From IMG/VR virus record IMGVR_UViG_3300037067_026753: 64,000 bases of DNA. One strand, 5' to 3'. The notes beneath the pieces are model-generated. The model did not search any database, was not told the DNA's origin, and was given only the letters and a program-made list of their open reading frames with translations. Of the stretch, positions 4,048 through 35,477 are shown in pieces. Numbering within the stretch: the first letter of the stretch is position 1; each line of letters starts with the position of its first letter. The DNA comes from a virus. Position numbers and translations under genes: made by a program.

Positions 4048-4445
4048 TAATCTCTTGCTTTCCCTATTATTGTTCCTATAGTACGCGAATCATTCCATTC
4101 AGGTATTGCGCCCAGTCTAGCATTACTTGCTTTTGTCACGTCATCATATAATTGCTTTGATGGGAAGATATATACAGAACCTTTTGCATATGTCTCGTTG
4201 TCAACGTATTTATCGTTTAGATCAAAGATAATCTCAAAAACTATTTTCCAATGTTGATAAGATTGCTCTGTCTCATCTTCTCTAAAACTTGAATCTTTAA
4301 GTTCAAGATGTACATGTTTAGATTTAATAGAACTAATAAATTGTTTTACTTTTTTTTCGAAATCAATCTTATCGACAAATTTCTGTTTCGAAACTGTTCT
4401 TTCACTTGCTTTCAAAATTTCATTTGTAATAAGTTCTATATTCAT
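4044..4445 (-). CDS. hypothetical protein (133 aa)
   Basis: ORF, translationally coupled overlaps. Confidence 0.45.
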   Translation of the reverse strand: MNIELITNEILKASERTVSKQKFVDKIDFEKKVKQFISSIKSKHVHLELKDSSFREDETEQSYQHWKIVFEIIFDLNDKYVDNETYAKGSVYIFPSKQLYDDVTKASNARLGAIPEWNDSRTIGTIIGKARDY

Positions 4446-7376: not shown

Positions 7377-7659
7377 GCTCTCTCCTTTGTTTTCTCTCTT
7401 GTCTTGCTTTTTCTATCTGTTCCTGTTTTTGTTTGAATAATTGTCTTGTTATTGCTGCTCTTTTTTGATTTGTAAAGAAACTTGTCTGTTTCTCAATTGC
7501 ATTAGATAAGTCTAAAGCTTGTAAAGCCATTTTTTGCATACCAATAAGATAAAATTTAGCTGAAATATCATTCTCTTTCAACATCGAAATTTCTTTATTT
7601 AATTCTTGAGAATGAAACTTCAGTTTATTAATTATTTCTCTAACATGTTCTATACTCAT
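7357..7659 (-). CDS. hypothetical coiled-coil protein (100 aa)
   Basis: ORF. Confidence 0.4.
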   Translation of the reverse strand: MSIEHVREIINKLKFHSQELNKEISMLKENDISAKFYLIGMQKMALQALDLSNAIEKQTSFFTNQKRAAITRQLFKQKQEQIEKARQERKQRREHGTSMV

Positions 7660-9599
7660 CTAAATGATCTCACTGGATGAATAGCTCTTTGCAAATTAGT
7701 TACCGTTTTATGCAATTTCAAACGTCTTTGATAAGCTTGATGACTTGCTACTTTATCACCTGTTGACGTAAAAGTTTGCACTCCATTTGTTCCAACAATA
7801 CTCAAAGCAGACATCCCGATTTCATTGTTAGTGGCTATATATGAAGCATTGGCTAAAACATCGCACAAGTCATCCGTTGTTATTTCTCCAAGAGTAGGTG
7901 CCTCAATTAAAAATTGTTTTTTCCCAACTCTTTTTTCCTGTAAATTTTTAAGTTCTTTTATTCCCCGTTCATGATAAAACATGTCGAGTCTTTCATCATA
8001 AATAAGATCTCTCAAATTTTTGTAAATTTTAGTGTTGTAATGTCTACTAAAAGGAGTTTTGAGAGCATTCAATCCTAATTTTTTGAACTTAAGAACAGAA
8101 GATGTACTGTCAAATTGGTCAAATACTATTTTCACTATTCTGAATTTTTGACATAAACTTGTTATATATTCGTGTATGACTTCTTCATCGATATAAGGCA
8201 ATCCTTCAAATTCAGGATCTCTTAATGACCAAACTTTCCATCTGTCTAAAATGACAATTGTTCTTTTTTGTCTTTTTTCTTTTCCTTCGATTACATTAGT
8301 TTTTTCTTTTTGTTCTACATGAACCATAGCAAGAGCATATCCATTTTGAGATGATGAAGGATCTACAGCTATATAATGGGCATAATTTGAAACTGGGACT
8401 GTTGTTTCACTATCTCTTGTGATACAAGCATCAATTTTTTCAGGGTATCTAAAGAATCCTGAAATTATAGAAGAGAATTCTGCACCAAATTCTGAGTCAA
8501 ATGATTCTGGGTTTCTCTTTTTTTCGCTTTCAAGATACTCGAAAGTAATTGTTTCATTCATCTCCCAAGTAGGTATTCTAAACATGATCTTGTTGAGATC
8601 AGGTTCATCACCTTCTCGACCTATACAATCAAGATATAGATCGTAAAAAATACCTGCTTTGATGTACGGCGACGAAATGCTTATGATTTTTCCATCAAGT
8701 CCAAATGTCGCTACAGAAGGAGTCAATGCCTCATAAATTTGATCTCCTGAACGGTTTCCCTCATTATCAATAAAGTGAGCAATCTCGTCAAGAATTCCAA
8801 CTATAATGCTACCACCACGTATACCACGTGCTGTACAAGGCAGAGCCAATATTTTTATAGAAACATGAGGATCTAAAGGTTTCCCGTGTAATCTTGTTTC
8901 TTGCGTATAGAGTTCTAAATCTCTTTTTGTTCTTAAACGAATCTCAGATTGATTTTTGCCTTCGACATAAGGCGTAAACCATTTTGAATTAAGAATTCTA
9001 TTTTGAGTAGCTTTTGCAAGAATTAATGCCTGATCTGTTGTACTGGCAATATTGACAATGCGAATTTCTTCGCCTTGGGGTAATTTATAGTATTTTTGAG
9101 GATCTACTTTTAAAATTAGTCTATATGCTTCATATGAAGAAATGACCGATGCAATAAATGTTTTACCAGATCTACGTCCACAAACTAGAACAAGTTCAAT
9201 AAAATCTTTAGGATCAAGGTTTCTTAAATTTGTTCTACCTTGTTGAATTAAAAAATTGACATATTCTACTTCAGTTAAATACTTCCCTTCCTCATCAAAC
9301 GGGAATGATCTTACTTTTATAGTTTTTTCTTTATCATCAAGTGAAATACCATAATAAACTTTAAGAACAAGTTTTTCAACAGCATGTAAGGGTTGATCAA
9401 GATAAAAAGGGTGTTCACAGAAGGTGATTATGTCAACTTCTTTTTCTGAATCATCAATGAGTCCCTTTGTTGCTTCTGCAAAAAGGGACTCAAACGAGAA
9501 GGAAGTATCTAAAATATCATTAGCCATTATTGTATGACGCCACAACTTCGAAAATAATGTCTTCTGTTGTTCTGTATCTAAGCATTGCAATTTTGACAA
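7656..9599 (-). CDS. terL: terminase large subunit (Walker A LVCGRRSGKTF, Walker B ILDEIAHF, C-terminal RNaseH-like nuclease Asp VDPSSS). True start may be Met at 9527
   Basis: canonical TerL ATPase motifs in translation. Confidence 0.85.
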   Translation of the reverse strand: MSKLQCLDTEQQKTLFSKLWRHTIMANDILDTSFSFESLFAEATKGLIDDSEKEVDIITFCEHPFYLDQPLHAVEKLVLKVYYGISLDDKEKTIKVRSFPFDEEGKYLTEVEYVNFLIQQGRTNLRNLDPKDFIELVLVCGRRSGKTFIASVISSYEAYRLILKVDPQKYYKLPQGEEIRIVNIASTTDQALILAKATQNRILNSKWFTPYVEGKNQSEIRLRTKRDLELYTQETRLHGKPLDPHVSIKILALPCTARGIRGGSIIVGILDEIAHFIDNEGNRSGDQIYEALTPSVATFGLDGKIISISSPYIKAGIFYDLYLDCIGREGDEPDLNKIMFRIPTWEMNETITFEYLESEKKRNPESFDSEFGAEFSSIISGFFRYPEKIDACITRDSETTVPVSNYAHYIAVDPSSSQNGYALAMVHVEQKEKTNVIEGKEKRQKRTIVILDRWKVWSLRDPEFEGLPYIDEEVIHEYITSLCQKFRIVKIVFDQFDSTSSVLKFKKLGLNALKTPFSRHYNTKIYKNLRDLIYDERLDMFYHERGIKELKNLQEKRVGKKQFLIEAPTLGEITTDDLCDVLANASYIATNNEIGMSALSIVGTNGVQTFTSTGDKVASHQAYQRRLKLHKTVTNLQRAIHPVRSFR

Positions 9600-10999: not shown

Positions 11000-11278
11000 T
11001 TATTTTATATCGGCAAGTTTTGTTGCTCCCTCACCTGATCTCTCCCTTTCAATCATTTTTGATTTCATCTTGTCGTTCTTTTTTTTCATTTGGTCTTTAA
11101 TTCTAAAGCCCTGACTTGGCCAATCATTTCCTTTGAGAACAAAATTCTTGTTTAAAGAAAAAAGCCTTTCACAATCACCAGAACAAATCTCGCATGACAC
11201 TTTTGGAGTAGCTGTAATACCGTGCATTTGTTCTTGAACATTTCCACATTCCTTACACTGATACTCATATGTGGGCAT
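11000..11278 (-). CDS. FmdB-family zinc-ribbon protein paralog (MPTYEYQCKECGNV...CEICSG)
   Basis: same signature as 10529..10786. Confidence 0.6.
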   Translation of the reverse strand: MPTYEYQCKECGNVQEQMHGITATPKVSCEICSGDCERLFSLNKNFVLKGNDWPSQGFRIKDQMKKKNDKMKSKMIERERSGEGATKLADIK

Positions 11279-11427
11279 TTTAATCTCCTCTTAAAAATTA
11301 ATTTTATTTAATTTGTACTACTAATTATATCTTGAATTTCAATGACAATGATCTTTAAATTGAAAACACAACACAATTCTGTCTATTAAACAATAGTCTT
11401 ATAAAAACTATAGAAATGGGAAATGAA

Positions 11428-12111
11428 CTAGTTCAAAAACCAGTTTATTGGTTGAATATTTTTAGATGCCAAAAAATCATTTGTTTTAGAAAAGTGTTTG
11501 CATCCAAAAAATTTGTATGAGGATAAAGGTGACGGATGAGCAGACATTAAAATTTGATGTTTTTTCTGATCTATTAAAAATCTCTTATTTTTAGCAAAAG
11601 AACCCCACAACAAAAAAACAATATTGCTTTTTAAATCAGATATTTTTTCAATTACACAATCAGTGAAAATCTCCCAACCTATTTTTGAATGCGACAATGG
11701 TTTATGGAGCTCGACTGTAAGAAAAGAATTCAAAAGCAATACGCCTTGACGAGCCCAGGACTCTAAACAACCAGATTTTGGTATTTCAATTTCTAAATCA
11801 TTTGCAAGTTCCTTAAAAATATTTATAAGACTTGGTGGCTTATCGATTCCTGCAGGAACAGAAAAAGAGAGGCCCTGAGCTTGTCCAACATTATGATAAG
11901 GGTCTTGGCCTAATAGAACCACTTTGGTGTCATCAAAAGAACACCATTCAAATGCTTTAAAGATATTATGTATTTCTGGTCTTATTTCTTTTTCTTTGTA
12001 CTCTGCAAAAATTCGTTTTTTTAATTCAATAAAATAAGACTTATCCTGTTCTTCTTGAAGGATTGTTTTCCAACTTTCAGGTAACTCTAAAATATTTTTT
12101 CTATTTATCAT
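11428..12111 (-). CDS. ung: uracil-DNA glycosylase, family 1 (GQDPYH water-activating loop, HPSPLS)
   Basis: diagnostic UDG motifs. Confidence 0.85.
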   Translation of the reverse strand: MINRKNILELPESWKTILQEEQDKSYFIELKKRIFAEYKEKEIRPEIHNIFKAFEWCSFDDTKVVLLGQDPYHNVGQAQGLSFSVPAGIDKPPSLINIFKELANDLEIEIPKSGCLESWARQGVLLLNSFLTVELHKPLSHSKIGWEIFTDCVIEKISDLKSNIVFLLWGSFAKNKRFLIDQKKHQILMSAHPSPLSSYKFFGCKHFSKTNDFLASKNIQPINWFLN

Positions 12112-13033
12112 TACTCAAACACATTTTTAAAAAATCAATGACTTTTAATTTTATTCCAGGAGAAGTTTTTTCACTATTTCCTGCAACATTTAAAACTTTT
12201 ATTGCATTACATTTCAACCAACTTTTGAATTTTATTTGTTGTTCTTTTAAATCTACATTTAAGTCAACATCAAAATAAGGTTTATCGTATTGAACTATTG
12301 CTTCAAATGTACATTTTTCACCTGATGAATTAAAATTTGTTGCAAATCTTACTGTCCCATCAGATTCTTTAACATTTAGATAAGTTCTTGGAGGATAATA
12401 ACTTGATTCATGTTCTTGCATATTGTATAATTCTTTATATTCTGGTTTGTCTCCATCTAATGTTCTAAAACCTGCAGGCATCCATCCACCAGATTTAAAC
12501 CCTATCAATTTTGCTGTAATTATACCAGCTTCATCAGCCCCTGTTTGACCACCTGAAATAATTTTTTCAACTTGAATATTATACCAATCAACTGTCGTAG
12601 GAATACTTTGTGTTTCTCTTGAAAAATCGAGCTTTGTGATCAAATCCGGTCTATGTAATCTGATCATCTTTCCAATCAAAGTAGTATGACAAAAAAACAT
12701 TCCTGTATTTTTTATTTGCTCTTTTGAAGAAGAACTACTCGGGCACCAACAACATAAAATATATTGTTGTTTTTTGTCAAGACTTTCAAGCCAGTTTTCT
12801 ATTTGTTCCCATCTATCTACATAACCTCCTCGTAACTCATTTATATAGCTATCAATAGAATTGCCACAATTTCTAAGTCTTAATCGAAAACCATTGACAT
12901 CTTTTGGGAACAAAAATTCTAAGTCATGATACTTACACCACTCAGGTTTCCAACAAGCAACACTGTATTTGTTTTCTAATTCATGTTTCTTTGCTTCAAA
13001 AAATGAAGTTAATAATACATTGAATTCAAGCAT
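12101..13033 (-). CDS. Cys-rich N-terminal domain fused to SLOG/YpsA-like (molybdenum-cofactor-carrier-like) nucleotide-binding domain (ISGGQTGADEAG)
   Basis: GGQTGxD motif of YpsA/MoCo-carrier SLOG clade. Confidence 0.45.
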   Translation of the reverse strand: MLEFNVLLTSFFEAKKHELENKYSVACWKPEWCKYHDLEFLFPKDVNGFRLRLRNCGNSIDSYINELRGGYVDRWEQIENWLESLDKKQQYILCCWCPSSSSSKEQIKNTGMFFCHTTLIGKMIRLHRPDLITKLDFSRETQSIPTTVDWYNIQVEKIISGGQTGADEAGIITAKLIGFKSGGWMPAGFRTLDGDKPEYKELYNMQEHESSYYPPRTYLNVKESDGTVRFATNFNSSGEKCTFEAIVQYDKPYFDVDLNVDLKEQQIKFKSWLKCNAIKVLNVAGNSEKTSPGIKLKVIDFLKMCLSNDK

Positions 13034-13044
13034 ATCTATTTATA

Positions 13045-13085
13045 TACCAAAAACAAAAAGAGCCGACACCTTTGAACCTGCCGGC
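13045..13085 (-). terminator. rho-independent terminator (GC hairpin then CTTTTTGTTTTTGG on minus strand)
   Basis: hairpin plus T-run immediately downstream of 13102..14814 gene; same T-run motif recurs at 27515-27560. Confidence 0.55.
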
Positions 13086-13101
13086 TCTTATTAATAAAAA
13101 A

Positions 13102-14814
13102 TTAATTTTTATGTTTATGAATCTGAACTACGCGCTCTTGCTGTAAAGCTTTTTCTTTTGAAGGATGCCTTCCTAAAAGTCTATCTTGATCCTTTGTGTA
13201 TAAACACCATCGTTGTTCTGATTTGGGTCTATTATCTTGATCTTTTTTAGGGCATTTTTTGATTATTGCTATCTTGATAAGTTCATGTTTACTAAGAATC
13301 TTTTTCTCTTCATTTGTCAAAAGGTTACTCAAGTATTTTATTGGATCTTTAAAACCATAACGCTCAATATATTTGAAAATAATATTGAAAGCTTCCCAAT
13401 TTTTACTAAATTTGCAACCTAATAATTCAAATTCATTTGTTTTGAATCTAATTAAACGAAATTCTTTAATTTCTTCTTTCAAAGTTTTCAAATCTTGAAA
13501 ATCTCGTGTTAATTTTGCTTTTATATCAGTCGTGTCCTTATTTGCTTTTTCTTGATAGACTAAGTCATTCACATGAACTTTTGTTCTAAAAATAAAGGGT
13601 AGAACAAATCTAACAATAGACAAAGCTTGCTGTCGTTCTTTTGCAAATTCTTCATCAGGTACAAAAGTAGTATCGACAAATTTTGGAGAACTCAACCACG
13701 AATCCTTAAGAATATCATAAACAGAATCAGATTCTAAACGTCTATTTTTCCCTATAACAAAGAATTTCACGGGATGGTCACCAACCAACTTCTTGTCATT
13801 TAACCTATAGACATATTGGCGGATAAATTGCCTTATCTCGAGATCATTCGAGCAATGTCTAACCGATTGTAGATTGTCTTGTCTAAACTTGTCAAAATCT
13901 ATAGAAACATTTATATCGACATCAGTTTCCGGAACATATTGATTAGTAACCATTGATCCTGTCATTGAAATATCAGTTACCCAATTTTTATAATTGTTAA
14001 ATTTAGAAAGAACACTAGAGAGCCTATCAAGAATTATCTTTCTAATTTCAGATTTTAATCTTATTGGTTCGACTTTCAAATCCCAAATCATAGGACAAAA
14101 AGTTTCTTGAGGATAATCAATTATCGAAGCATGCTTGGGCAAACGTCTTTCAAAAAAAATTTCAAGTTCTTTGGGTAAGAGTTTTTTCTTTTTTAAAACT
14201 TCTGCATTCTGCTCCAACATATCTTTCCCGCCTGGGACATAATCTCTTCTTTCGATTAAAGGTTGCATTATCTGAGCAATAATTCTCTCAGTATTTGCTT
14301 TTTTGTATTCTGATGTATCTTTAACTTTTATCCAAAGAAATTTTTTAGCACTTGTTTTTATAAGAGCATAATAACCATCAACTTTTTTACCATTAAATTT
14401 TACCACGTATTTCTTATCATAATCGACATCTACAAGTTCAAAAGTTCCTTTGTCATAAATATCGACTGTTCCTGCACCATAATGCCCTTCTGGTATAGTG
14501 CCCTCAAAATCACGATAAGCTATATCATGATCTTCAGTTTCTGATGCAAGCAAAGGTTTATCGCTTGGGAGTTTATGCTTTGGAATTGCCCAACTTCTAA
14601 GCACTGTACCTGATTTGTCTGGGAATTTTGTTTCTGGTTCCGTTGTGCTATCATTATCCCAAACACGCTTTTTGTAATATGAAGTAAGGGCATCTTTCAA
14701 TGAATCAACAGGGAATTCAAGTCGTAGATCCCAGTGTTCATTAGTAGCGACATGATGTTGTATTACGAATTTTCCTTTATATCCAATTTGAAGTTTTTCT
14801 TTATCGTAACTCAT
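13102..14814 (-). CDS. LigD-type 3'-phosphoesterase (PE) domain (FVIQHHVATNEHWDLRLE, GHYGAGTVDIYDKGTFEL) fused to a Pol-beta-like nucleotidyltransferase-like region (TGSMVTNQYVPETDVDINV)
   Basis: strong match to LigD PE His/Asp motifs; GS...DxD NTase motif. Confidence 0.65.
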   Translation of the reverse strand: MSYDKEKLQIGYKGKFVIQHHVATNEHWDLRLEFPVDSLKDALTSYYKKRVWDNDSTTEPETKFPDKSGTVLRSWAIPKHKLPSDKPLLASETEDHDIAYRDFEGTIPEGHYGAGTVDIYDKGTFELVDVDYDKKYVVKFNGKKVDGYYALIKTSAKKFLWIKVKDTSEYKKANTERIIAQIMQPLIERRDYVPGGKDMLEQNAEVLKKKKLLPKELEIFFERRLPKHASIIDYPQETFCPMIWDLKVEPIRLKSEIRKIILDRLSSVLSKFNNYKNWVTDISMTGSMVTNQYVPETDVDINVSIDFDKFRQDNLQSVRHCSNDLEIRQFIRQYVYRLNDKKLVGDHPVKFFVIGKNRRLESDSVYDILKDSWLSSPKFVDTTFVPDEEFAKERQQALSIVRFVLPFIFRTKVHVNDLVYQEKANKDTTDIKAKLTRDFQDLKTLKEEIKEFRLIRFKTNEFELLGCKFSKNWEAFNIIFKYIERYGFKDPIKYLSNLLTNEEKKILSKHELIKIAIIKKCPKKDQDNRPKSEQRWCLYTKDQDRLLGRHPSKEKALQQERVVQIHKHKN

Positions 14815-15092
14815 AAAACTTCAAACCTCATATTTCTTAATCTTGACAATCTTCTTTTCAATTCATTTTTAAGAGTTCTTTCATTAGTTACTTCCATATT
14901 CATAAGAATATCAAGAACTATTGATATGTTAGGCCTTCCCACAAAATTAGAAAAACCTGGAGCAGCCCGAATTGTTTTTTGAAAAAGAAGTGAACTTGGC
15001 CTGTCTAAAACAACATTAATTCGTATTTTTCTTGTTCTGTCAGCAGCTTCTTTTAAAATTTCATTTGCTATTTTCTGGACTTGTTTCTTCAT
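14811..15092 (-). CDS. hypothetical protein (93 aa)
   Basis: ORF. Confidence 0.35.
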   Translation of the reverse strand: MKKQVQKIANEILKEAADRTRKIRINVVLDRPSSLLFQKTIRAAPGFSNFVGRPNISIVLDILMNMEVTNERTLKNELKRRLSRLRNMRFEVL

Positions 15093-15324
15093 TAGTTTCT
15101 TCTTTAATAGATTTTCTTGATTTTGATTTTACAGCAGCATGGCCTAAGCCCAAAGCTGACAATAAGAAACCAAATATAGTCACACTCTTTGAAAAAACTA
15201 GAGGAAAACCATCAGGGCAACCATTGGGCCATATCACAGCTATACTCGGAATTAAAACAGACCAATAGATCAATGCAATTGTTCTTTTTCTTCCATTAAT
15301 GAGCCGCCATAATTTAACTAGCAT
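15061..15324 (-). CDS. small membrane protein with two predicted TM helices and charged C-terminus (holin-like)
   Basis: hydrophobicity pattern. Confidence 0.35.
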   Translation of the reverse strand: MLVKLWRLINGRKRTIALIYWSVLIPSIAVIWPNGCPDGFPLVFSKSVTIFGFLLSALGLGHAAVKSKSRKSIKEETNEETSPENSK

Positions 15325-16175
15325 AATGCACCTCCAGTTTTATTGATTTCATAGAGTATGCGTAGATAAGAGGATTCTTTCTTTTTATTATCCCATTTGA
15401 ATTTCTTTCCAATAACTTTTTGATAAATTTTATCAAACTTTGCATCTTCTTTTTTAAAACTTTTTAGAGAAGAAACTGGTACACAACATAATCCAGTTTC
15501 TATTCTCATGCTATATGGTGCAATATGACCACCATCAGATTTCATCGGTGAAAGATCTATATTAATTTTTGAACCAGAAGGCTTATTTGTTGCAATTACA
15601 ATCTTGTCATCGTCTTTAAAATATTCTTCCAGACGTTTTTCAACATCTTTTCTGATAGCACTTATATCACGTTTTGATTTTAATTTTCCTTTTACATGAA
15701 AACCTCGTTTTCCTGTAAAATTTATCTCTGGATTTGATTTGAAATCTTTTTGTTCTTTTATAAAATCAACACATTGCGAAACAATATCTTTCAAAGATTC
15801 AAATGTTGCACTGGACCCTGGATCAATATCGAAAATAGCTTCATCCGTTGTAGTTGGAGATGTAATATGGTATTCACCTGTCTTCCCTGTGTGATATTGT
15901 TCAAAATCATCAACTGAATTGATCCTAATATATTGAGTTTTTTTATCATAAGGACGTCTTATGTAAAGTCTTGAACCCGGACGAATTGCCATGACAACAA
16001 ATAAATCATGTCCTTTTAATTCTGGTACAAGTTTATTTTTTACACCATCATAATAATTCCAGACATCAATTTCTTTCACACCGTTAGAAAAATATTCATT
16101 CTTTTTGACTACAAGTTGGTCAGGATGTTCTGGATAATCTGCTGTTTTATTCAGTAGTTTTTCCATCAAATTCAT
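15318..16175 (-). CDS. archaeo-eukaryotic primase-type polymerase, LigD Pol-domain-like (DIDPG, TGKRGFHV)
   Basis: AEP motifs I and III. Confidence 0.65.
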   Translation of the reverse strand: MNLMEKLLNKTADYPEHPDQLVVKKNEYFSNGVKEIDVWNYYDGVKNKLVPELKGHDLFVVMAIRPGSRLYIRRPYDKKTQYIRINSVDDFEQYHTGKTGEYHITSPTTTDEAIFDIDPGSSATFESLKDIVSQCVDFIKEQKDFKSNPEINFTGKRGFHVKGKLKSKRDISAIRKDVEKRLEEYFKDDDKIVIATNKPSGSKINIDLSPMKSDGGHIAPYSMRIETGLCCVPVSSLKSFKKEDAKFDKIYQKVIGKKFKWDNKKKESSYLRILYEINKTGGALC

Positions 16176-16590
16176 CCGTTTTATCGTTCAATGCATCAGC
16201 TTTTGTCTTATGAATTATTTTATCTTTGTGTTGCGGTGGTGCATAAAGTGTGTAAAGTTTAAGATCTTCTTTTCCTGTGTTAATTATATTGTGTTCTGTA
16301 CCTGCAGGAATCAATATAGAAAAACCATCTTTAATTTGATGGGTCTCTCCACTAATAACAACTTCACCAGAGCCAGCATCTAATCTAAAAAACTGATCGA
16401 CATCTTTATGTGTTTCTTTTCCAATATCTTCTTTAGGTTTTAATGTCATCAAAACTAATTGTAAGTTTTCTGCTGTATAAATAACTTTCCTGAAATTTTT
16501 GTTTCTTATTGTTTCTTCTTCTATATTGATGACAAAACCTTTTTTCTTGTTTTTCTTCAAAATCTCATCGGCTATTTTTGAAACATTCAT
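16147..16590 (-). CDS. cupin-fold protein
   Basis: GxxxxxH...PAGTEHN cupin motifs. Confidence 0.5.
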   Translation of the reverse strand: MNVSKIADEILKKNKKKGFVINIEEETIRNKNFRKVIYTAENLQLVLMTLKPKEDIGKETHKDVDQFFRLDAGSGEVVISGETHQIKDGFSILIPAGTEHNIINTGKEDLKLYTLYAPPQHKDKIIHKTKADALNDKTDEFDGKTTE

Positions 16591-16598
16591 AATTTCAC

Positions 16599-17078
16599 CT
16601 ATGCTAGAAATTCAAAATGTGGATAATCAGGGTTTTTAAATCTTCCTCCCCATTTCAATCCTACACTTTCTCCAAGTAATCCAGCTTCTAAATAATCAGG
16701 CTGTTCATTTTGATTGACATTAACTTTTACATCCCAAATAACTTTTCCATTTTTTGTAATAGCAATATCAAAAGCTCGTGATTTATCGTTTTCTTTATAA
16801 CCATCATCAAGATCTACGAGATGTCGGGATGCAAGTGTCCATGTTACTTTATTCTTATTTTCTTTTTCTGTAATTGAAGGTAAATTAGCCATTCTTCTAA
16901 GGATATTGACTTCTCTTACAGGTTGTCTGCCTTGAGCATATAGTGCCTGTTGTTCTTTTACTGTTCTAGCTGTACATGTCACTATAAAAGCGATTTTTGC
17001 AGCATCCATTTTTTCTTTGAATTTAGCATATATTAGCTGCATTTGTGGTGTTAAATCTTCAATTTTTCTTGAAGCCAT
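16599..17078 (-). CDS. peptidase M15 (VanY / L-alanyl-D-glutamate peptidase-like) endolysin (SRH...AFD, WGG...D.PHFE)
   Basis: zinc-ligand motifs of M15 family. Confidence 0.65.
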   Translation of the reverse strand: MASRKIEDLTPQMQLIYAKFKEKMDAAKIAFIVTCTARTVKEQQALYAQGRQPVREVNILRRMANLPSITEKENKNKVTWTLASRHLVDLDDGYKENDKSRAFDIAITKNGKVIWDVKVNVNQNEQPDYLEAGLLGESVGLKWGGRFKNPDYPHFEFLA

Positions 17079-17081
17079 AAT

Positions 17082-18542
17082 CTATTCTTCCTGATAAGAT
17101 TCTGGCCATACACCTTCATTTTGTTTAAATTTCTTCTTTATTTTTTCGCCATTAGCTTTAGGGTTAAGTTCTTCTAGAGCAATCATAGCATCTTCCCAAT
17201 ATATTCCCTCATGATCAATTAATGTTTTAAGTTCTTCAGCAAGTTTATCATAATCAGTAGAGTTCCTTACGATGATAAATTCTTTAATGTTTTCACGATT
17301 CTTAGGGTGTTTCATAGGTTTTCTGCCAAAAGCAGCAAGAATTTCACCAGCAATTTTGTCAATATTGTTATTCAGAACTGAAGCGGTTTTGATTTGCGCT
17401 TTTTTAGTGAAATGCTTGTGTATTGCAGCTTTAATTTCTACCATTGTTTGTCCAGGAAAGAAGTTCTCACGTATAATTTCGCAAGCTTCTCTAAGACAAG
17501 AAATTATTTCTTTGTCTTCATTGGTTGCAAGAATTTTTGCAGTATTTACAGTTTCAACAACATGAGACCCTGTAAAATCTTTTGAAAGCGTGATAATTTC
17601 ATCATCGACAGCTTTTCCAAGATGTTTGAAATACATCATTTTAAGATTCTCAGGTCCAGGTAAACCAATCTCTATTCTTCTATCAAAACGACAAGGGCGA
17701 GAAGAAAGAGCTGTGTCCAGCATTTCAATTTTATTTGTAGATGCTATAACAACAAGTGGTTCACCAAATTTTCTCATACCATCAAGATTTGTAAGCAGAT
17801 CGCCAAGTTGATTTGAAGCTGTAAAGTTATCTCTATTTCCACTCATAAAATCTATATCTTCGAATGCAAGAACTGTTGGGCCAAGATATGCCAAGAACTC
17901 AAACAGCTTACTAACAGCCATATATCTAAAAGATTCAGCTGTCACATAAATTCTACTTACATTTTTCTTGTCAAGATCATTAAAAACAGCTTTTACAACA
18001 GAAGTCTTCCCAGTCCCTGGAGGCCCATACATAACAAGACCCCGTTTGTTCACTCCTGCTGTTGCAAATTTTTGATTTCCAAGAAATTCTGATGTGTTAA
18101 GCCGTATATCTTTCTTAGCTTTTTCGGTAAGGATAACATCATCCCAAGAAACTTTCGGAACATCCCTGAAAAACATTGTTTCTTTTTCAGCATATAGGCA
18201 TTTTCCACGATATTGATTTTTCTTAATCATATCGTTTTCAAATCTGTCAATCCATTGTTTTGCTTCTTCTCTTGTTTGAGCATAACAGTTCACATGAAAA
18301 CTACCATACTGCATATATGCTGTAATTATTTTGTTATCATAAACTGCAGATAAATTTTCAATTGCAGGCATTGTGTTATAGACATCGATTTGTAAATCAT
18401 CTAAAACTGGTTTTTTCCCAAAATCATTTGCTGTTGCAATTTTTGGTGTTTGTTCCTTCAACAGATTTGTGATTGTATATTTTGCAATTGGGACAAGTAA
18501 ACCATCATAAGAACGAGAAACTGGAGTGAGACCGAGTATCAT
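17082..18542 (-). CDS. classic AAA ATPase (Walker A GPPGTGKTS, second region of homology SRPCRFDRRIEIGLP)
   Basis: AAA signature motifs. Confidence 0.75.
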   Translation of the reverse strand: MILGLTPVSRSYDGLLVPIAKYTITNLLKEQTPKIATANDFGKKPVLDDLQIDVYNTMPAIENLSAVYDNKIITAYMQYGSFHVNCYAQTREEAKQWIDRFENDMIKKNQYRGKCLYAEKETMFFRDVPKVSWDDVILTEKAKKDIRLNTSEFLGNQKFATAGVNKRGLVMYGPPGTGKTSVVKAVFNDLDKKNVSRIYVTAESFRYMAVSKLFEFLAYLGPTVLAFEDIDFMSGNRDNFTASNQLGDLLTNLDGMRKFGEPLVVIASTNKIEMLDTALSSRPCRFDRRIEIGLPGPENLKMMYFKHLGKAVDDEIITLSKDFTGSHVVETVNTAKILATNEDKEIISCLREACEIIRENFFPGQTMVEIKAAIHKHFTKKAQIKTASVLNNNIDKIAGEILAAFGRKPMKHPKNRENIKEFIIVRNSTDYDKLAEELKTLIDHEGIYWEDAMIALEELNPKANGEKIKKKFKQNEGVWPESYQEE

Positions 18543-18556
18543 ATTTAATCTCCTTT

Positions 18557-18892
18557 TTAATTACTCTCTTTTAGATGTTTTTTATTAACAATGTGGTATT
18601 GTTCTAATGGGAAAGCTTTAAGTCTTTTCAAAACATCAAGTACTTTTTGTTTGCTTTTTACATCAGAATTTATCTCTACTTCTACAAGATTTTTGCCAGT
18701 AAAATCTGGGAACTCTTCGTCATCTATATCAAAAACTTTAAGCTCTACTGTTAATCTGCTTAAATGCCTTTTCAATTCTTCAATTTTTGTTTCATCAAGA
18801 CCCCATGACCCAAGATCCTTTGGATATTTTGCCGATGTTTCTAAATTGAAAGCAAGTTTTTTAACTATAGAATTCAATTCTTTCAAAATCAT
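18557..18892 (-). CDS. hypothetical protein (111 aa)
   Basis: ORF. Confidence 0.4.
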   Translation of the reverse strand: MILKELNSIVKKLAFNLETSAKYPKDLGSWGLDETKIEELKRHLSRLTVELKVFDIDDEEFPDFTGKNLVEVEINSDVKSKQKVLDVLKRLKAFPLEQYHIVNKKHLKESN

Positions 18893-20079
18893 AAGTTTCC
18901 TCCAACAACTGATCTTATAATAGACTCAGATATAATAAAAAGTTTAGAACTTTTTAAAAAATTTTTTTTCATTTTAGCATAATCTGGTAATTGACTCAAA
19001 CGCAAATCCTGTGCATTTATATCTTTATCGGTTCTTTCTCTAACGAATCCAGGTTTTGAAATAGTAGCAGCAAATTGATCTTCAATTTTTTCCCAAGATT
19101 TATCTTTAAATTCAAATGTATTGACAGGTCTATAATTCAATCTCTCGTAACTTGTTTCTATAACTTTATTCATTTTAAAAGGATCGACCCAAATAGTTCC
19201 ATTTTCTTTCTTTATCTCATATTTTTTAGCAAGTTTCCACCATTCATCCCGATCAGTATCTGTAAAACCAACTCCTAAATTTATGACTTTATAAAACTGT
19301 TTCCCATCATAAAAACCTAATATCAAAGCCCCCATACGGCCTTTATTCTTCCCACGACCTTCTTGAACAGCTAATACGCCAAGATCTAAAGTAAAAACAG
19401 GTTTAGACTTATAGATTTTTCCATCTGCCGTTCGAACAACTATACCTTCATTTTTTTCTTTTTCGACCCACTTGTTCCAAACTGATTTCAAGTCAGAAAC
19501 TTTTCCGATTTTATGATCTACTGGATAAATATGCTTCGATTTCCCAAACCATTTTTCGAGTTTTTCAAAATTTGTTTTATAATCTTCATAAGAACTTGAA
19601 ACTTCTTTATTATCAAGTTCATGAACTTCAAAAGGAAAAAATTCTATATGTTCTTCTTCACCAAGTTCTGGTTTTCTTAACGTTGATTCAGTATCGTTAA
19701 AATGTACTGGTTTTCCATGAGATGAAGTCTTTGCAAGTTCTCCAAAAATAATAGCCTGTCGAACTTTTTCTTTTTTCAAAATAGTTTCTATTTCGTTCGA
19801 CACAGGCATATCTTGACGAATTCTACCATCTTTTGAACTGAACTTTACATCTCCTGGAGTATATTCCATGCCACCTAATTCGCCATCAATTTTTTCTGAC
19901 GCGAAAATCTCTTGGTCTCCAACTTCTTTTTTGAGCTCATCAAAGCTTAAGGAGACCATACCTTGATGCTCTTTCCAGGATTGTACTTGTTTTGTTAAGC
20001 TATTAGACTTGTCAATATGGGACTTCATGTCAAATAACAGCAAATAAAAACTATAGAAAAGAACTAGATGTTTAGACAA
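18889..20079 (-). CDS. ATP-dependent DNA ligase (motif I SEKIDGE, motif IV EGIVVR, motif V KSKP; OB region GALILGFYDG). Start probably at an internal Met
   Basis: covalent nucleotidyltransferase motifs. Confidence 0.7.
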   Translation of the reverse strand: MSKHLVLFYSFYLLLFDMKSHIDKSNSLTKQVQSWKEHQGMVSLSFDELKKEVGDQEIFASEKIDGELGGMEYTPGDVKFSSKDGRIRQDMPVSNEIETILKKEKVRQAIIFGELAKTSSHGKPVHFNDTESTLRKPELGEEEHIEFFPFEVHELDNKEVSSSYEDYKTNFEKLEKWFGKSKHIYPVDHKIGKVSDLKSVWNKWVEKEKNEGIVVRTADGKIYKSKPVFTLDLGVLAVQEGRGKNKGRMGALILGFYDGKQFYKVINLGVGFTDTDRDEWWKLAKKYEIKKENGTIWVDPFKMNKVIETSYERLNYRPVNTFEFKDKSWEKIEDQFAATISKPGFVRERTDKDINAQDLRLSQLPDYAKMKKNFLKSSKLFIISESIIRSVVGGNL

Positions 20080-20084
20080 ACGTT

Positions 20085-20498
20085 TTAAACAGTTACAGCT
20101 TCGGCATCTACTTCCTCAAGTATTTTTTGCAAATCATACTTGGGTTTCAATTTCATCTTATGCTGTTGTTTGTCGTATTCAAGGAAAGGATGTGGAGATT
20201 CACGCTTATCTTTTATGAAAAGCTCGATAAACTCTTTACCACCTCGAAGAAGTTCATCTATCGATAATGTCTTGACATCAGGGTTTCCTAAGAAAAACTT
20301 TTTATCAAGATATCCAAAATCTGCAAGAGCAATTTCAGGTTCACTTTGGCTAGTAAAATCTTCCCAAAATTTTTTTCGATCTTCAGGCGATAAAAACTCA
20401 AAATGTAGATCGGCATGCCCTTTCCCCTTAACAGGTACCTGAGGCATTGCTTCTTTTACTATATCATCTAACAATCTATTATATTCAGCACATTTCAT
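20085..20498 (-). CDS. hypothetical protein (137 aa)
   Basis: ORF. Confidence 0.4.
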   Translation of the reverse strand: MKCAEYNRLLDDIVKEAMPQVPVKGKGHADLHFEFLSPEDRKKFWEDFTSQSEPEIALADFGYLDKKFFLGNPDVKTLSIDELLRGGKEFIELFIKDKRESPHPFLEYDKQQHKMKLKPKYDLQKILEEVDAEAVTV

Positions 20499-20544
20499 TC
20501 TATTCTCCTAACAAAATATTAAGAGAATAAAAGCTTTAGAAAAT

Positions 20545-21027
20545 CTACTGTCCAGTTGAACCAAAACCTCCCAAACCACGTGAAGTAGCATCAAGATCTT
20601 CTACTTCTATAACAGGGAATAAACCTACAGGACAAACAACAAGTTGAGCAATCTTATCACCAACTTTTAGTTCTTGTCGCTCATGTCCTATATTTGCAAT
20701 AATAATTCCAATATGTCCTCTATATTGCTGGTCAATTGTACCCGGACTATTTACAACTATAAGACCTTTGTTCAAAGCATTGCCACTTCTTGGTCTTGCT
20801 TGAATTTCCCAACCTATACCTGCAGTACCTGCAAGCCCTGTGTCAATTAAAACTCTATCATTTGTTGAAAGTATCACGTTTTGAGCACCTTCTGACATTT
20901 CCTTCAAACCTGAAACTTCAAATTTCTTAACAAAATGATGTATGAAAACATCAGCACCAGAATCTGTTGAATTAGCACGTTCTGGCAATCTAGCATCAGC
21001 ATATAACTTTTTGATTTTTAAGTTCAT
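20545..21027 (-). CDS. dut: dUTP diphosphatase (all five dUTPase motifs incl. GTIDQQYRG and RGLGGFGSTG)
   Basis: motif-by-motif match. Confidence 0.9.
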   Translation of the reverse strand: MNLKIKKLYADARLPERANSTDSGADVFIHHFVKKFEVSGLKEMSEGAQNVILSTNDRVLIDTGLAGTAGIGWEIQARPRSGNALNKGLIVVNSPGTIDQQYRGHIGIIIANIGHERQELKVGDKIAQLVVCPVGLFPVIEVEDLDATSRGLGGFGSTGQ

Positions 21028-21186
21028 TATGCTCCAATCTGAATTTCTTCAAAATGTACATGTGCAGGTTTCAAACAATGAACTTTTTCCCAACATTCAA
21101 ACGAACAAAATCCATCATCAGTTTCAACATTATCAACATGATAGCTTTTATTGCATTCAGGATTTGAACAATTAGAATGAGACATA
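21026..21186 (-). CDS. small Cys-rich protein, 52 aa (MSHSNCSNPECNK...CSFECWEKVHC), stop overlaps dut start (TAATG)
   Basis: own translation. Confidence 0.35.
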
Positions 21187-21213
21187 CCTGCCCCCTAGTT
21201 AAAGTTTTTTATA

Positions 21214-23763
21214 TTAACCACAACCAACATAATCTGGACAATCAATACAACGTTGACAACCACCCTCCATTACAACTCTACCACCACAAACTGGGCATTT
21301 AATTCCCTTAAGCTCTATACCATCATTTAATGTTTTAGACAAAAACTTTCTAACGGCAGTAAGAAGCGTTGAAACATTATCCCCATCAATTCCCATCAAA
21401 GAAACAAGTATGTCTTCTCTAGGGATATTGTGTCTCAAACACAAAGAAATCATACGTCCAAGTCTATTATGAGGATAATCTTCATTTGCTTTATCGACAG
21501 TCTCTTTTACAATCTCTCTATCTATTCCGCAAGATAATGCAAGTTTAGAGAGATTTCGAGCTGCTTTATTACAAACTTTTAATTCTTCACCACCATATTG
21601 TGAATTAGTATAGATCCAAATACAAATAGGGAATTCTTTTCTTGAATCTTCAGGAAGATATGAAAAATGTAAATAGAATTTTTTACCTTCTCTTTTTATA
21701 ATATGAGTTTCACCGTTTATGAAAATGTCGGGAAGTTTTATGTCTTTTGCAATAATTTCTCGTCTTGCAGCTTTACTTATATCAGAAAGTACAGATTCCA
21801 TTGAACCTTCACGATATGTCGTAAAACCATTAAGTCCAAGTTTCCATGCCTTCAAGTAAAGTTCTTTAAAATCATCAAAAGGATAGTCATTAGGAAGATT
21901 CGCTGTTTTGCTAGTACTTTGATTATTATAGAATTGAACGACTTCTTGAATTCTCAAATGATCATCAATTTTCAAATCTTTTGTTGTAACAAGATACTTT
22001 GAATGATCTTCATCAGGGAAATTATCAAGTAACCATTGATACCCGTAATCTCTTACTTTATTTATCTTGCATAAACCCCTGTTATGAGGCTCATAATAAT
22101 ATTCAAAATCACTATACTCGCCCCTCCAGTATTCATAATCTTTCTCTTTATGATGTTTTAAGAGTTTTTTGACGTTGTCAGCGTCAAGTCCTTCGGGCCA
22201 CTGTTGACAAATAACTTTTCTCTCATACTCAATAAGAAAAACAGGCTCAATTCCGTTTGAAGTGATATCTGAAAGCAAAGATGAGTTACCAAGCGGCGGA
22301 ACAGTTGTAGTTTTTGCATTTCTTGCACCATATTTTCTCAACATTGCTCTTGTGTCGTCTGTAATTCTTACAGAATTGAAAAATTCTGTGCTCTCAAATT
22401 CAGCTTTTCTATATGCTCCAAAAACTCCTTTTTCTTTAGCAAGTAATGCTGATGTTTGCCATGTAAGATTTTCTTTTAATTGGCAAATTTTCTTAGTGAA
22501 TTCAACAGCTTCTTGACTATTATAAGGAATTTTGAGCATCATTAAAGTAGAACCCAAACCATTAATCCCCATACCTATTTGACGAAGATTATCTATAACC
22601 CATTGATAACTTGGCAGAGGTGCATAAGTAAGATCATTTACGTTGTCAAGCATTCTTGTAAAAATCTTTACATCTTTGATGTATTCGTCAAAGTCAAAAT
22701 AAGTAGTTCTATCAATTTTTATATGGACATATTGAGTGAGGTTTAAAGAGCCAAGAAGACAGACAGTGCCAATAGATGCTAGACCTCCTATTTCCCCACA
22801 AGGGTTGGTCGCTGTTACTCGACCAAGATATGCAACAGGATTGTTGTGCATCATATTATCAGCAAAAAGGACACCAGGCTCTGCTCTATCATAACAAGAT
22901 TGCATTATCAAGTTATAAAGTTCTCTTGCTTTAATTTTTTTGAACACAACTCCATTAAAACTCTGTTCAAAGAACTCATCGTTTTCTACAGCTCTCAAAA
23001 AATCATCAGTTAGAACAACAGAGATATTGAATTTTGTCAATACACCAGAGGTCTGTTTTGCTCTTACGAACTCTTCACAATCAGGGTGTGTAACGCTCAA
23101 GGCACCAAGCATTGCACCTTTTCTTATTGAATCTTTTATAATTTCCTTTACTTTCTCGAATTTTTCTGCTCCAAGATAGTTCTTGATTCTATCAACATAA
23201 CCATCAGCATCACCTTGAACAATACATTGAGAAACAGCGTCCCAGATTTTCATATAAGCTACAACACCAGGATGCTTGATTCCAGTACCTTTAATTATAG
23301 AACCACGAGGTCTAATAAAATCAAAGCTTACACCATAACCACCTTCAGAAGCAAGAGTTTTTGCTTGTTCTGTTATGGTTAAAAAGATATTTAACAAATC
23401 ATCAGGAGAATCATCAGTTTCATATTCAATAGGAAATTGTATGAGTTTGTTTTCTGTTTCACGTTCATATGAAACTTTTGCATTAGAAACAGGAGCAGCA
23501 ACAAAACAATTAAGTAAAGTTGCTTTCTTGTAAGTAGTCCCTACATTTGCTGTTATTCTCCCGCCAGTAGTACATTTCAATCCTACTGGTTCCCCTTCGA
23601 CGATTTTTACAAGTGTATGTAAAAAAGGCTCATACCACTCATCAGGATTTTTTTCTACAGATGCAAGGGCTCTAGCAACTCTTTGGAAAGTCTCGTATGG
23701 AGTCTCATTACCAAATTTATATTTTGAAGCCCATATTTCTCTAGCAAGTTCAGTTTTAAACAT
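21214..23763 (-). CDS. nrdJ: ribonucleotide reductase class II, adenosylcobalamin-dependent (TNPCGEI thiyl-radical loop), C-terminal CxxC zinc ribbon
   Basis: diagnostic NrdJ motif and length. Confidence 0.85.
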   Translation of the reverse strand: MFKTELAREIWASKYKFGNETPYETFQRVARALASVEKNPDEWYEPFLHTLVKIVEGEPVGLKCTTGGRITANVGTTYKKATLLNCFVAAPVSNAKVSYERETENKLIQFPIEYETDDSPDDLLNIFLTITEQAKTLASEGGYGVSFDFIRPRGSIIKGTGIKHPGVVAYMKIWDAVSQCIVQGDADGYVDRIKNYLGAEKFEKVKEIIKDSIRKGAMLGALSVTHPDCEEFVRAKQTSGVLTKFNISVVLTDDFLRAVENDEFFEQSFNGVVFKKIKARELYNLIMQSCYDRAEPGVLFADNMMHNNPVAYLGRVTATNPCGEIGGLASIGTVCLLGSLNLTQYVHIKIDRTTYFDFDEYIKDVKIFTRMLDNVNDLTYAPLPSYQWVIDNLRQIGMGINGLGSTLMMLKIPYNSQEAVEFTKKICQLKENLTWQTSALLAKEKGVFGAYRKAEFESTEFFNSVRITDDTRAMLRKYGARNAKTTTVPPLGNSSLLSDITSNGIEPVFLIEYERKVICQQWPEGLDADNVKKLLKHHKEKDYEYWRGEYSDFEYYYEPHNRGLCKINKVRDYGYQWLLDNFPDEDHSKYLVTTKDLKIDDHLRIQEVVQFYNNQSTSKTANLPNDYPFDDFKELYLKAWKLGLNGFTTYREGSMESVLSDISKAARREIIAKDIKLPDIFINGETHIIKREGKKFYLHFSYLPEDSRKEFPICIWIYTNSQYGGEELKVCNKAARNLSKLALSCGIDREIVKETVDKANEDYPHNRLGRMISLCLRHNIPREDILVSLMGIDGDNVSTLLTAVRKFLSKTLNDGIELKGIKCPVCGGRVVMEGGCQRCIDCPDYVGCG

Positions 23764-33213: not shown

Positions 33214-34059
33214 ATGAACTACAAATGCAAAGTCTGCTCTTGGACAGGCACAAGAGGTGATTTAGTACTAGACAAAATTAACTCAAACTCAAATTATGAC
33301 AATCATAATCATTTGAGACATCCCGACACCTTCAGCACTGATTTCAGCTATATACTCAATGTTCAAAATTGGTGCTACTGTCCAAATTGTTTCAACATGT
33401 TTCCAATACCCAGATCTGAAACAGTCCTTTCGCTTGTACATCGTGGCTCAGTAATCTCTATTGTCACTAATAATCCATTCCATAGAGGCCCAACATTCTT
33501 ACATCTCGGAAGAATTCTTGATTTTGTTGTAGGAGAAAGAAATATATCATTTCTCGGATATAAAGCCCTTGAACATTTTCCTTTCAATCTTAATATGATT
33601 CTCAGCACTACTCCAGAATTAGAATTTGAATCAAAAATCGTCTTGAAGATTGTCCACTATTTTCATAAACAACATTTTAATTGTGAAGCACGAGACTATG
33701 ACGATTATAAGCTTTTTGGGAGATGGGGTATTATTATGAAAAATACTTATCCACTAAGAAGTTGTTCACTTTGTGCTAGAATTCATGATTATGAGACAAA
33801 AAAATCAAATGGTTGGCCACTGTCAGTCAAAGCAATTGATAGAATAAAAATGGATACTTTTAAAAGTCTTGCAAATGTGCCATTAAACACAAACAATAAA
33901 TTCAATAAAATCTTTAATCCGCAAAATATTGTAGAAAAACCACAAATCTGTTGTTGCAACGAAATAAGCAAGAAACCAAATGAATTTTGCTCTATTCATA
34001 ATACTGCTGACATTGTTGGTACTGCATCACCAAGCAATTTAGCAAGTCTAAATTTCTAA
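33214..34059 (+). CDS. Cys-rich hypothetical protein (281 aa)
   Basis: ORF after divergent intergenic region. Confidence 0.45.
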   Translation: MNYKCKVCSWTGTRGDLVLDKINSNSNYDNHNHLRHPDTFSTDFSYILNVQNWCYCPNCFNMFPIPRSETVLSLVHRGSVISIVTNNPFHRGPTFLHLGRILDFVVGERNISFLGYKALEHFPFNLNMILSTTPELEFESKIVLKIVHYFHKQHFNCEARDYDDYKLFGRWGIIMKNTYPLRSCSLCARIHDYETKKSNGWPLSVKAIDRIKMDTFKSLANVPLNTNNKFNKIFNPQNIVEKPQICCCNEISKKPNEFCSIHNTADIVGTASPSNLASLNF

Positions 34060-35054: not shown

Positions 35055-35345
35055 TTATCTGCGGTAAGGAGGTCTGTTCCCTGCGGGTCTTCTTTCCTGT
35101 TCTCTGGCAGCTGATACTGACAACTGACGCCCTTCGATTGAAGATTGCGAACCTTCTGACAATGCTCTGTCTGCATTATCCAATTCGACAAAACCAAAAC
35201 CACGTGACCGCCCTGTATCGCGATCCATAATAACTTTTGCAGACATGACACTTCCATACTGTTCAAAATGTCTCTGCAGAGCAGCATCATCCGTGCTAAA
35301 CGGAAGATTCCCTACATAAATCTTCTGACTCACAAGAACCTCCAC
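35055..35345 (-). CDS. RRM-type RNA-binding protein (RNP2 IYVGNL, RNP1 RGFGFVE), GC content clearly above flanks
   Basis: RNP1/RNP2 motifs. Confidence 0.75.
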   Translation of the reverse strand: MEVLVSQKIYVGNLPFSTDDAALQRHFEQYGSVMSAKVIMDRDTGRSRGFGFVELDNADRALSEGSQSSIEGRQLSVSAAREQERRPAGNRPPYRR

Positions 35346-35364
35346 TAACGTTAATAATGAAAAA

Positions 35365-35438
35365 TACCCCGTGCAGGACTCAAACCTGCGACCCTCTGCT
35401 TAGAAGGCAGATGCTCTATTCAACTGAGCTAACGGGGC
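35365..35438 (-). tRNA. tRNA-Arg (anticodon TCT)
   Basis: manual cloverleaf: GCCCCGT acceptor, loop CTTCTAA, T-loop TTTGAGT. Confidence 0.75.
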
Positions 35439-35477
35439 AAAGTTTCATAAATTATATATCATACACATAATAAAAAG

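Follow-up and report, generated by a model that had tools for sequence, protein, structure and literature searches.

A LigD-like polymerase, phosphoesterase and ligase module without a recognizable Ku in one lineage of huge phages

Repair of the LigD type is viewed as cellular and Ku-dependent, and the question raised by the DNA analyzed here is what a set of LigD-like enzymes may do in a virus where no Ku is found beside them. The DNA is a stretch of 64,000 nucleotides (IMG/VR record IMGVR_UViG_3300037067_026753), referred to at its full length as the window. An initial annotation named three separate genes as the parts of a split, LigD-like machinery for non-homologous end joining (NHEJ): an AEP-type (archaeo-eukaryotic primase) polymerase (Pol), a 3'-phosphoesterase (PE) and an ATP-dependent ligase. 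All three genes are present as described and lie on the minus strand (Table 1). From the evidence presented below, the region 13102-20498 (-) may be a fragmented form of a Ku-independent, multi-enzyme break-repair module that acts most likely on the phage's own DNA, a reading that we consider an even call. The module is confined to a single lineage of huge phages.

Support for the genes belonging together comes from 49 related metagenomic loci, here given L numbers, of which seven are contigs reached through homologues and 42 were recovered by a metagenome scan, one of the latter as the contig Ga0315284_10000005 of 441,848 bp. The loci were mapped with hidden Markov models of four domains and flanks of up to 10 kb, giving approximately 400 kb of flanking sequence in total. 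The order ligase, Pol, PE, with a nucleotidyltransferase (NTase) domain after PE where present, is kept on one strand in all 34 sequences that have both a ligase and Pol (33 loci and the window). The same parts are also found joined in single open reading frames (ORFs). Ligase and Pol are fused in six loci (L003, L016, L017, L019, L038 and L047), Pol and PE in L022, L036, L039 and L051, Pol, PE and NTase in L018, L021 and L035, and Pol and a kinase in L028. Protein P0179 carries ligase, Pol, PE and NTase within 1116 amino acids, and L023-25 present an uninterrupted ORF of 1369 amino acids in the standard bacterial code that runs from ligase through an AAA_33 kinase, Pol and PE to NTase. Since independent fusions of several kinds recur, the parts are likely to be functionally linked, and this constitutes strong "Rosetta stone" evidence that they work together.

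The proposal that the three genes form one LigD-like set is thus borne out by their fixed order and by the recurrent fusions, while the split into three interrupted genes stands for the window but not as the basic form of the module. Only in the window clade (L001, L010-12 and L014) is the interval between ligase and Pol occupied by an AAA ATPase and an M15 peptidase; the ATPase has this position in the window, L001 and L012 alone, and the peptidase is restricted to the clade. Given this distribution, the split and interrupted layout is a derived state of one module that arose by clade-specific insertion; in related phages, the genes form a compact operon or even one polyprotein.

The Pol protein matches the Pfam LigD_Prim-Pol family with an E-value of 2.3e-13 and 50.8 bits, where the cut-off is 27.4. 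Its DIDPG motif (D116, D118) and GKRGFH motif (H160) are invariant across 47 relatives, and a profile built from 25 members of the family has as its best PDB sequence match the Methanocella NHEJ polymerase (5dmu, 8.6e-5). The DxD, sxH and third carboxylate of the LigD PolDom clade are all present, and LigD PolDom outscores Prim-PolC slightly as a match. Helicase, PriCT and zinc-binding primase domains are absent from Pol in a Pfam search, which sets it apart from a replicative primase. The LigD type first assigned to the protein is therefore retained; in structural terms it is an AEP of the NHEJ type. The expected third catalytic aspartate, D207 in the motif NIDLS, occurs only in the window clade (seven sequences). 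With window residues 196-207 aligned, the other 39 sequences have a glycine at this position and a conserved glutamate approximately 10 residues upstream, in the motif GES. The third catalytic carboxylate has apparently moved between neighboring strands.

The PE domain, which has an insert of approximately 35 amino acids after the first strand pair, matches Pfam LigD_N at 1.1e-21, the PDB structures 3p43/3p4h at about 1e-22 and Methanocella 5dmp at 1e-16. The residues of the metal and phosphate sites (H21, H27, D29, R31, H96 and Y100) are kept in every member of the family, as expected of LigD, in which His/Asp form the metal site and Arg/His/Tyr the phosphate site. The placement of a LigD PE domain at the N-terminus of the 13102-14814 protein is correct as far as it goes; a fourth catalytic domain, the NTase at amino acids 225-515 of the same protein, had been missed. 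This domain has a Pol-beta fold in which the signature G-S...D-x-D...D is invariant in the family, followed by a long helical hairpin. It is close to no solved family, and only generic minimal-NTase and ANT folds are matched; 10 of 28 members give weak Pfam matches of the MTPAP/poly(A)-polymerase type. In the close relative L001, the NTase is a separate gene of 400 amino acids. The NTase family is extensive; among 1.84 billion representatives, 947 clusters match it at E ≤ 1e-3. In other settings (P0209, P0210, P0202 and P0205) the NTase is found in fusions with a CCA-adding enzyme and a C39 peptidase, with an adenylate kinase, with a trypsin-like peptidase, and in the reversed order NTase-PE; the CCA-adding enzyme fusion is that of P0209.

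The ligase probably starts at an ATG at position 20028, in agreement with the 379-amino acid call at NCBI. All six ligase motifs can be recognized. Motifs I (KIDGE), III, IV (EGIVVR), V and VI (FVRERTDK) do not vary across the family, including the motif VI residues R332, D334 and K335, and an OB domain is present (PF04679/PF14743). A profile of the ligase family finds archaeal and eukaryotic Lig1/Lig4 DNA ligase cores in the PDB, with E-values of 6e-24 to 1e-13; from matches of this strength, the enzyme is classed as a DNA-type ligase. No LigD ligase domain is among the PDB matches of the profile at E ≤ 0.01, and no RNA ligase is listed among its PDB matches. In this PDB comparison, the ligase appears nearest to Lig1/archaeal-type cores and outside the LigD clade. 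The original assignment as an ATP-dependent ligase holds, and the OB domain, motif VI and DNA ligase matches argue against membership in an RNA-ligase or capping-enzyme family. One qualification applies: the best Pfam model for the nucleotidyltransferase domain of the window ligase itself is RNA_ligase (PF09414, 32.2 bits, cut-off 27). This match spans only the generic nucleotidyltransferase fold, and the ligases of the relatives match DNA_ligase_A_M (PF01068) and DNA_ligase_A_C (PF04679).

No Ku accompanies these enzymes. The Ku family PF02735 had no Pfam match in 80 window ORFs, which included all of at least 200 amino acids, and none in the precomputed Pfam tables of seven related loci. A phmmer search with a genuine Ku from a LigD-Ku operon against the six-frame ORFs of the window and the 49 loci returned nothing better than E = 0.04. 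The absence of a Ku ORF from the window, noted at the outset, is thus confirmed by both methods. The label of NHEJ machinery is not supported, Ku being missing from the window and all 49 loci; in the PDB comparison, the ligase also lies outside the LigD clade. Two candidates for a Ku substitute were considered and rejected. The 111-amino acid ORF next to the ligase is conserved in L001 alone (55% identity) and not in distant loci, so it is neither a substitute nor a conserved partner. A protein of 211-247 amino acids that neighbors the module in 19 loci has no Pfam or PDB match, and its alignment to Ku with hhalign had a probability of 0.1%.

The list of parts proposed initially was sound but incomplete; the NTase, a protein termed N137, the cupin (then seen as merely intervening), an RRM protein, a Pnkp-like kinase and a 2H phosphoesterase belong to the module as well. 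N137, which is encoded directly upstream of the ligase, is homologous to an N-terminal extension of approximately 100 amino acids on the PE of P0014 (pairwise E-value of 1e-6). From a jackhmmer search, it is fused to PE in L004, L030, L032, L040-42 and L045-46 and to the C-terminus of Pol in L027, and it is a stand-alone gene in L001, L012 and L023/24; the fusion to the N-terminus of PE occurs in six lineages. In 10 loci, among them the distant L026, L030, L031, L032 and L037, a cupin homologue is the gene directly upstream of ligase or Pol. An RRM gene abuts the stop codon of PE-NTase in L005-7, L018, L021, L023-24, L031, L034 and L050 and lies two genes downstream in L002/L029, making 12 loci in all. 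The copy in the window, with the RNP-2 and RNP-1 motifs IYVGNL and RGFGFVE, is by comparison displaced from the module.

The kinase is also encoded at a distance in the window. It is 35% identical (E-value of 3e-16) to amino acids 378-510 of the L023 polyprotein, it matches the Pol-kinase fusion of L028, and the fused kinase of L023-25 is itself recognized as AAA_33 at 1.3e-16. Its best PDB matches are Pnkp1 (4xrp, 1e-3) and the Clostridium thermocellum Pnkp kinase, both of the RNA-repair Pnkp type. A 2H (LigT/CPDase-like) phosphoesterase neighbors the module in 14 loci (PF13563, 3e-13 in L018). The module therefore links a 5'-kinase and a 3'/cyclic-phosphate esterase to a ligase in the manner of healing-and-sealing systems, with PE always present. 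The end of the window kinase gene is overlapped by a gene for a eukaryote-like protein with WGR, PARP regulatory and PARP catalytic domains, and it is possible that the sensing of breaks is linked in this way to the healing of ends.

The source of the DNA was established from its gene content. The ligase, Pol and PE proteins are identical to proteins of a 424,144-bp contig with locus tags PHF86_066xx, labeled by NCBI as "MAG: Candidatus Nanoarchaeia archaeon". Head and packaging proteins (portal, large terminase subunit and head-maturation protease) are encoded in the window along with two clusters that hold 13 tRNA genes, so it belongs to a huge phage sorted into an archaeal bin, and the taxonomic label is wrong. 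The 64 kb of the window represent approximately 15% of the 424-kb genome, have a GC content of approximately 32% and, between 394 and 32380, carry nearly all genes on the minus strand. A distant-mode blastn search against GenBank phages found no nucleotide similarity to the window. An RtcB with an intein, an Rnl-type RNA ligase and the tRNA clusters form an RNA-repair toolkit that is separate from the module.

From the domain identities, catalytic residues, gene order, fusions and absence of Ku observed above, a substrate, an order of reactions and a biological trigger may be proposed with the help of the known chemistry of LigD PE, LigD Pol, Pnkp kinases and ATP-dependent ligases. The PE would strip 3'-phosphates or 3'-terminal ribonucleotides to leave a 3'-OH, and the Pnkp-like kinase would phosphorylate 5'-OH ends. 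Pol would then fill short gaps or extend the 3' end, with ribonucleotides as the probable building blocks, as for LigD polymerases, the NTase would perform a second, undefined nucleotidyl transfer at the end, and the ligase would seal the break. The targets would be nicks, gaps and breaks with "dirty" ends in phage DNA, which could stem from host nucleases or from base excision. DNA is favored as the substrate because the module has a DNA-type ligase and a templated AEP polymerase of the NHEJ clade, an RtcB and an Rnl ligase are provided separately, and genes for a uracil-DNA glycosylase (UDG) and a dUTPase flank the module in the window and in L001, L010 and L012. A precedent for a Ku-independent repair complex of an AEP and a ligase is LigC/Prim-PolC (PMC5663958). 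As in mycobacterial LigC/Prim-PolC, the module pairs an NHEJ-clade AEP with a stand-alone ATP-dependent ligase in one operon without Ku; unlike it, the module has a PE, an NTase and a kinase. By analogy, the module would resemble gap repair by LigC/Prim-PolC, or single-strand-break repair that depends on PNKP, more than classical end joining.

Several observations weigh against DNA repair, and most of them point to RNA. UDG and dUTPase adjoin the module only in the window clade, where they may reflect a mere clustering of nucleotide-metabolism genes. The repair of RNA or of RNA/DNA-hybrid ends, which we consider possible but somewhat unlikely, would have PE, 2H and the kinase heal the 5'-OH and 2',3'-cyclic-phosphate/3'-phosphate ends that host anticodon nucleases or further RNases leave behind. 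The NTase and/or the AEP would rebuild 3' nucleotides, the RRM protein would hold the RNA and the ligase would seal it. The recurrence of the RRM gene after PE-NTase and of the 2H gene beside the module (12 and 14 loci) is consistent with this, as are the relationship of the kinase to RNA-repair Pnkp enzymes, the poly(A)-polymerase-like matches of the NTase, its fusion to a CCA-adding enzyme in P0209, the RNA_ligase model that leads the Pfam results for the window ligase, and the 13 tRNA genes of the phage. The fused kinase recalls the ligase-kinase-CPDase layout of fungal Trl1 (PMC10946426), and according to work on CkoPE (PMC3258152), PE enzymes attack 3' ribonucleotides, with a preference for single strands. 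The comparison extends to the healing-and-sealing systems in general. T4 Pnkp and Rnl, bacterial Pnkp/Hen1 and Trl1 place a 5'-kinase, a 3'-phosphoesterase and a ligase in one operon or polypeptide as the module does, Trl1 has a counterpart of the neighboring 2H phosphoesterase, and such systems are encoded by phages as a counter-defense. The differences lie in the enzymes themselves. The module ligase is of the DNA type rather than the Rnl type (PF01068/PF04679 in relatives, OB domain and motif VI, PDB matches to 6e-24), the 3' healer has the LigD-PE fold rather than a HAD or calcineurin fold, and a templated AEP is added. We know of no role for a templated NHEJ-clade AEP polymerase in RNA repair, and the window already has an RtcB and a strong Rnl-type ligase for that purpose.

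Break repair on phage DNA also has to be set against other DNA-based explanations. Classical Ku-dependent end joining, for genome circularization or double-strand-break repair with a Ku from the host or from another part of the phage genome, is suggested by the LigD/NHEJ clades of Pol and PE. The sharing of NHEJ parts between phage and host has a precedent in the mycobacteriophages Corndog and Omega, which encode Ku and borrow the host LigD. A Ku or a second DNA ligase could lie elsewhere in the 424-kb genome, of which the window covers 15%. Ku is nonetheless absent from the window and from the approximately 400 kb around the 49 loci, the ligase falls outside the LigD clade, the kinase, NTase, RRM and 2H parts are foreign to NHEJ, and with a terminase and a portal, packaging requires no end joining. 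Ku-dependent joining is therefore very unlikely. When compared to LigD with Ku, the module has the same AEP Pol and PE families but no Ku in any locus examined, a ligase nearest Lig1/archaeal cores instead of LigDom, and the order Lig-Pol-PE. It adds the Pol-beta-fold NTase, the Pnkp-like kinase and N137, none of which, to our knowledge, has been described for LigD. It is also encoded by huge phages, and a pattern scan found no example in GTDB representatives. A close cellular parallel is the split NHEJ set of Methanocella paludicola (PDB 5dmu, 5dmp), in which Pol, PE and ligase are separate proteins as in the window; that set is cellular, includes Ku and is without the NTase, kinase and RRM of the viral module. 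The genes might otherwise be ordinary replication genes, with the AEP as a replicative primase, the ligase as an Okazaki-fragment ligase and PE and NTase as unrelated neighbors. Their surroundings do include genes for ribonucleotide reductase, dUTPase, UDG and a helicase, the 64-kb window shows no further DNA ligase or primase, and the ligase might indeed be the replicative ligase of the phage. Since Pol has no helicase, PriCT or zinc-binding domain, and its recurrent fusion to PE, NTase and kinase favors end processing over priming, this account is highly improbable. A fuller and quite unlikely version of DNA repair would be a self-contained pathway resembling that of eukaryotes, in which the WGR-PARP protein senses a break, the kinase and PE clean it, the AEP and NTase patch it, possibly with ribonucleotides, and the ligase seals it, undoing host-nuclease damage (restriction, CRISPR, nickases) without Ku. 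The RRM protein or the helical domain of the NTase might then take over the binding of ends. The logic of sensing, cleaning, filling and sealing is analogous to eukaryotic single-strand-break repair by PARP1, PNKP, Pol beta and ligase 3: in the window, the WGR-PARP gene directly follows the Pnkp-like kinase gene, and a 3'-phosphoesterase, gap polymerases (one with a Pol-beta fold) and a ligase are present. The PARP gene is, however, separated from the module by 31 kb, and the enzymes share general superfamily membership without being orthologues.

As a Ku-less viral version of LigD-like repair with a wider set of enzymes, the module occurs in approximately 40 distinct metagenomic phage loci. 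A tblastn search of 50,697 GenBank phage records gave no match for Pol and, for PE-NTase, only a weak match of the NTase in a 735-kb uncultured phage. Scans with a pattern from the Pol alignment found nothing in IMG/VR or in 185,579 GTDB representative genomes (one per species). A literature search returned no description of such a phage module, and LigD is unmentioned in a comparative survey of 224 jumbo-phage genomes (PMC7824862). Given the Methanocella precedent, a split LigD alone is not new; the novelty lies in its occurrence in viruses, in a Ku that is consistently missing, in the added parts (NTase, kinase, N137 and RRM) and in a polyprotein of five domains. Were phage DNA the substrate, the module would represent a new kind of counter-defense against host nucleases, and nature would have provided, in the 1369-amino acid protein, one chain able to clean, fill and seal breaks, with possible biotechnological uses. 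Should the target be RNA instead, no earlier repair system would have joined RNA healing to a DNA-type ligase and an AEP polymerase. With either substrate, the variety of fused and split forms offers clear constructs for biochemistry.

The cupin, endolysin and AAA ATPase genes reported to separate the three enzyme genes are all present, and the interval also holds three small ORFs of 111, 93 and 87 amino acids (Table 1). The latter two are found only in the window clade (L001, L010-14). Directly downstream of PE-NTase is a gene for a cpYpsA protein, a position that it shares only with L001 and L010-12. A promoter and terminator scan of 11000-21500 found sites no more numerous than expected by chance and is uninformative on operon boundaries.

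Table 1. Features of the window discussed in the text, in order of the module and its surroundings.
Feature	Coordinates	Strand	Evidence and remarks
N137 domain protein, 137 aa	20085..20498	(-)	directly upstream of ligase; no Pfam match
ATP-dependent DNA-type ligase, nucleotidyltransferase and OB domains, no N-terminal DNA-binding domain	18889..20079	(-)	PF09414 1.4e-7; PF04679 1e-5; PF14743 1e-5
111-aa ORF	18557..18892	(-)	overlaps ligase stop by 4 nt; no Pfam/PHROG match
AAA ATPase	17082..18542	(-)	Pfam AAA 9.5e-21
M15 peptidase, endolysin-like	16599..17078	(-)	Peptidase_M15_4 1.1e-7; phrog_465 endolysin 4e-22
Cupin_2 protein	16147..16590	(-)	Pfam 6.4e-15; phrog_13536 4e-33
LigD/NHEJ-type AEP primase-polymerase (Pol)	15318..16175	(-)	Pfam LigD_Prim-Pol PF21686
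Two overlapping small ORFs (93 aa; 87 aa, hydrophobic) between Pol and PE	14811..15324	(-)	no Pfam/PHROG match
LigD 3'-phosphoesterase (PE) domain, aa 1-170 of 570-aa protein	14305..14814	(-)	LigD_N
Pol-beta-fold NTase domain and long helical hairpin, aa 225-515 of PE protein	13270..14142	(-)
C-terminal tail of PE-NTase protein, ~55 aa	13102..13269	(-)	window clade only (alignment); weak phrog_3684, 0.0028
cpYpsA SLOG-domain protein	12101..13033	(-)	PF12694 2.2e-32; directly downstream of PE-NTase
Uracil-DNA glycosylase (UDG)	11428..12111	(-)	PF03167 6.5e-18; same place in L001, L010, L012
Large terminase subunit	7656-9599	(-)
Phage portal	4442-6697	(-)	phrog_16240, 2e-48
Head-maturation protease	1035-2777	(-)
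RRM_1 protein	35055..35345	(-)	RRM_1 2.1e-16
Pnkp-type P-loop polynucleotide kinase-like protein	50437..50949	(+)	AAA_33 6.3e-12
WGR, PARP regulatory and PARP catalytic protein	50906-52318	(+)	Pfam 8e-28, 1e-9, 4e-8; overlaps kinase gene end
NADAR domain protein	59143-59592	(+)	3e-39
RtcB with intein, Rnl-type RNA ligase, tRNA genes	59786-62179, 39367-40374, 35364-37781, 45689-46094	(+), (+), (-), (+)	Rnl-type ligase PF09414, 1e-27

Some observations stand apart from the module proper. In L004 (6082-7953), L027 (5392-7488) and L034 (5041-7338), the ligase or Pol carries an extra domain with a sub-threshold match to PF15891 (nucleoside 2-deoxyribosyltransferase-like, ~1e-5). The cpYpsA protein of the window was considered as a relative of these "Nuc_deoxyri_tr2"-like domains; BLAST similarity is absent, and no link is claimed. 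In L043 (3-1403), Pol is preceded by a segment that matches the intein-containing RtcB of the window, which is probably an intein or homing-endonuclease insertion and not a true fusion. Taken together, the NADAR, cpYpsA and PARP proteins hint at ADP-ribose as a theme of this phage. A weakly matched JAB-like peptidase and, after it, a ThiF/E1-like protein are encoded shortly upstream of the kinase and PARP genes (49030-50437 (+)), a pair that may serve in ubiquitin-like conjugation or deconjugation. At 40754-45474 (-), a response-regulator receiver and HD-GYP phosphodiesterase (2e-38) lie beside a 1225-amino acid TPR-repeat protein, and breakdown of cyclic nucleotides by the HD-GYP enzyme may be a counter-defense. 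The gene that adjoins the displaced RRM gene and the tRNA array (34056-35000 (-)) joins a MazG pyrophosphohydrolase to a cytidylyltransferase-like (NMNAT-type) domain.

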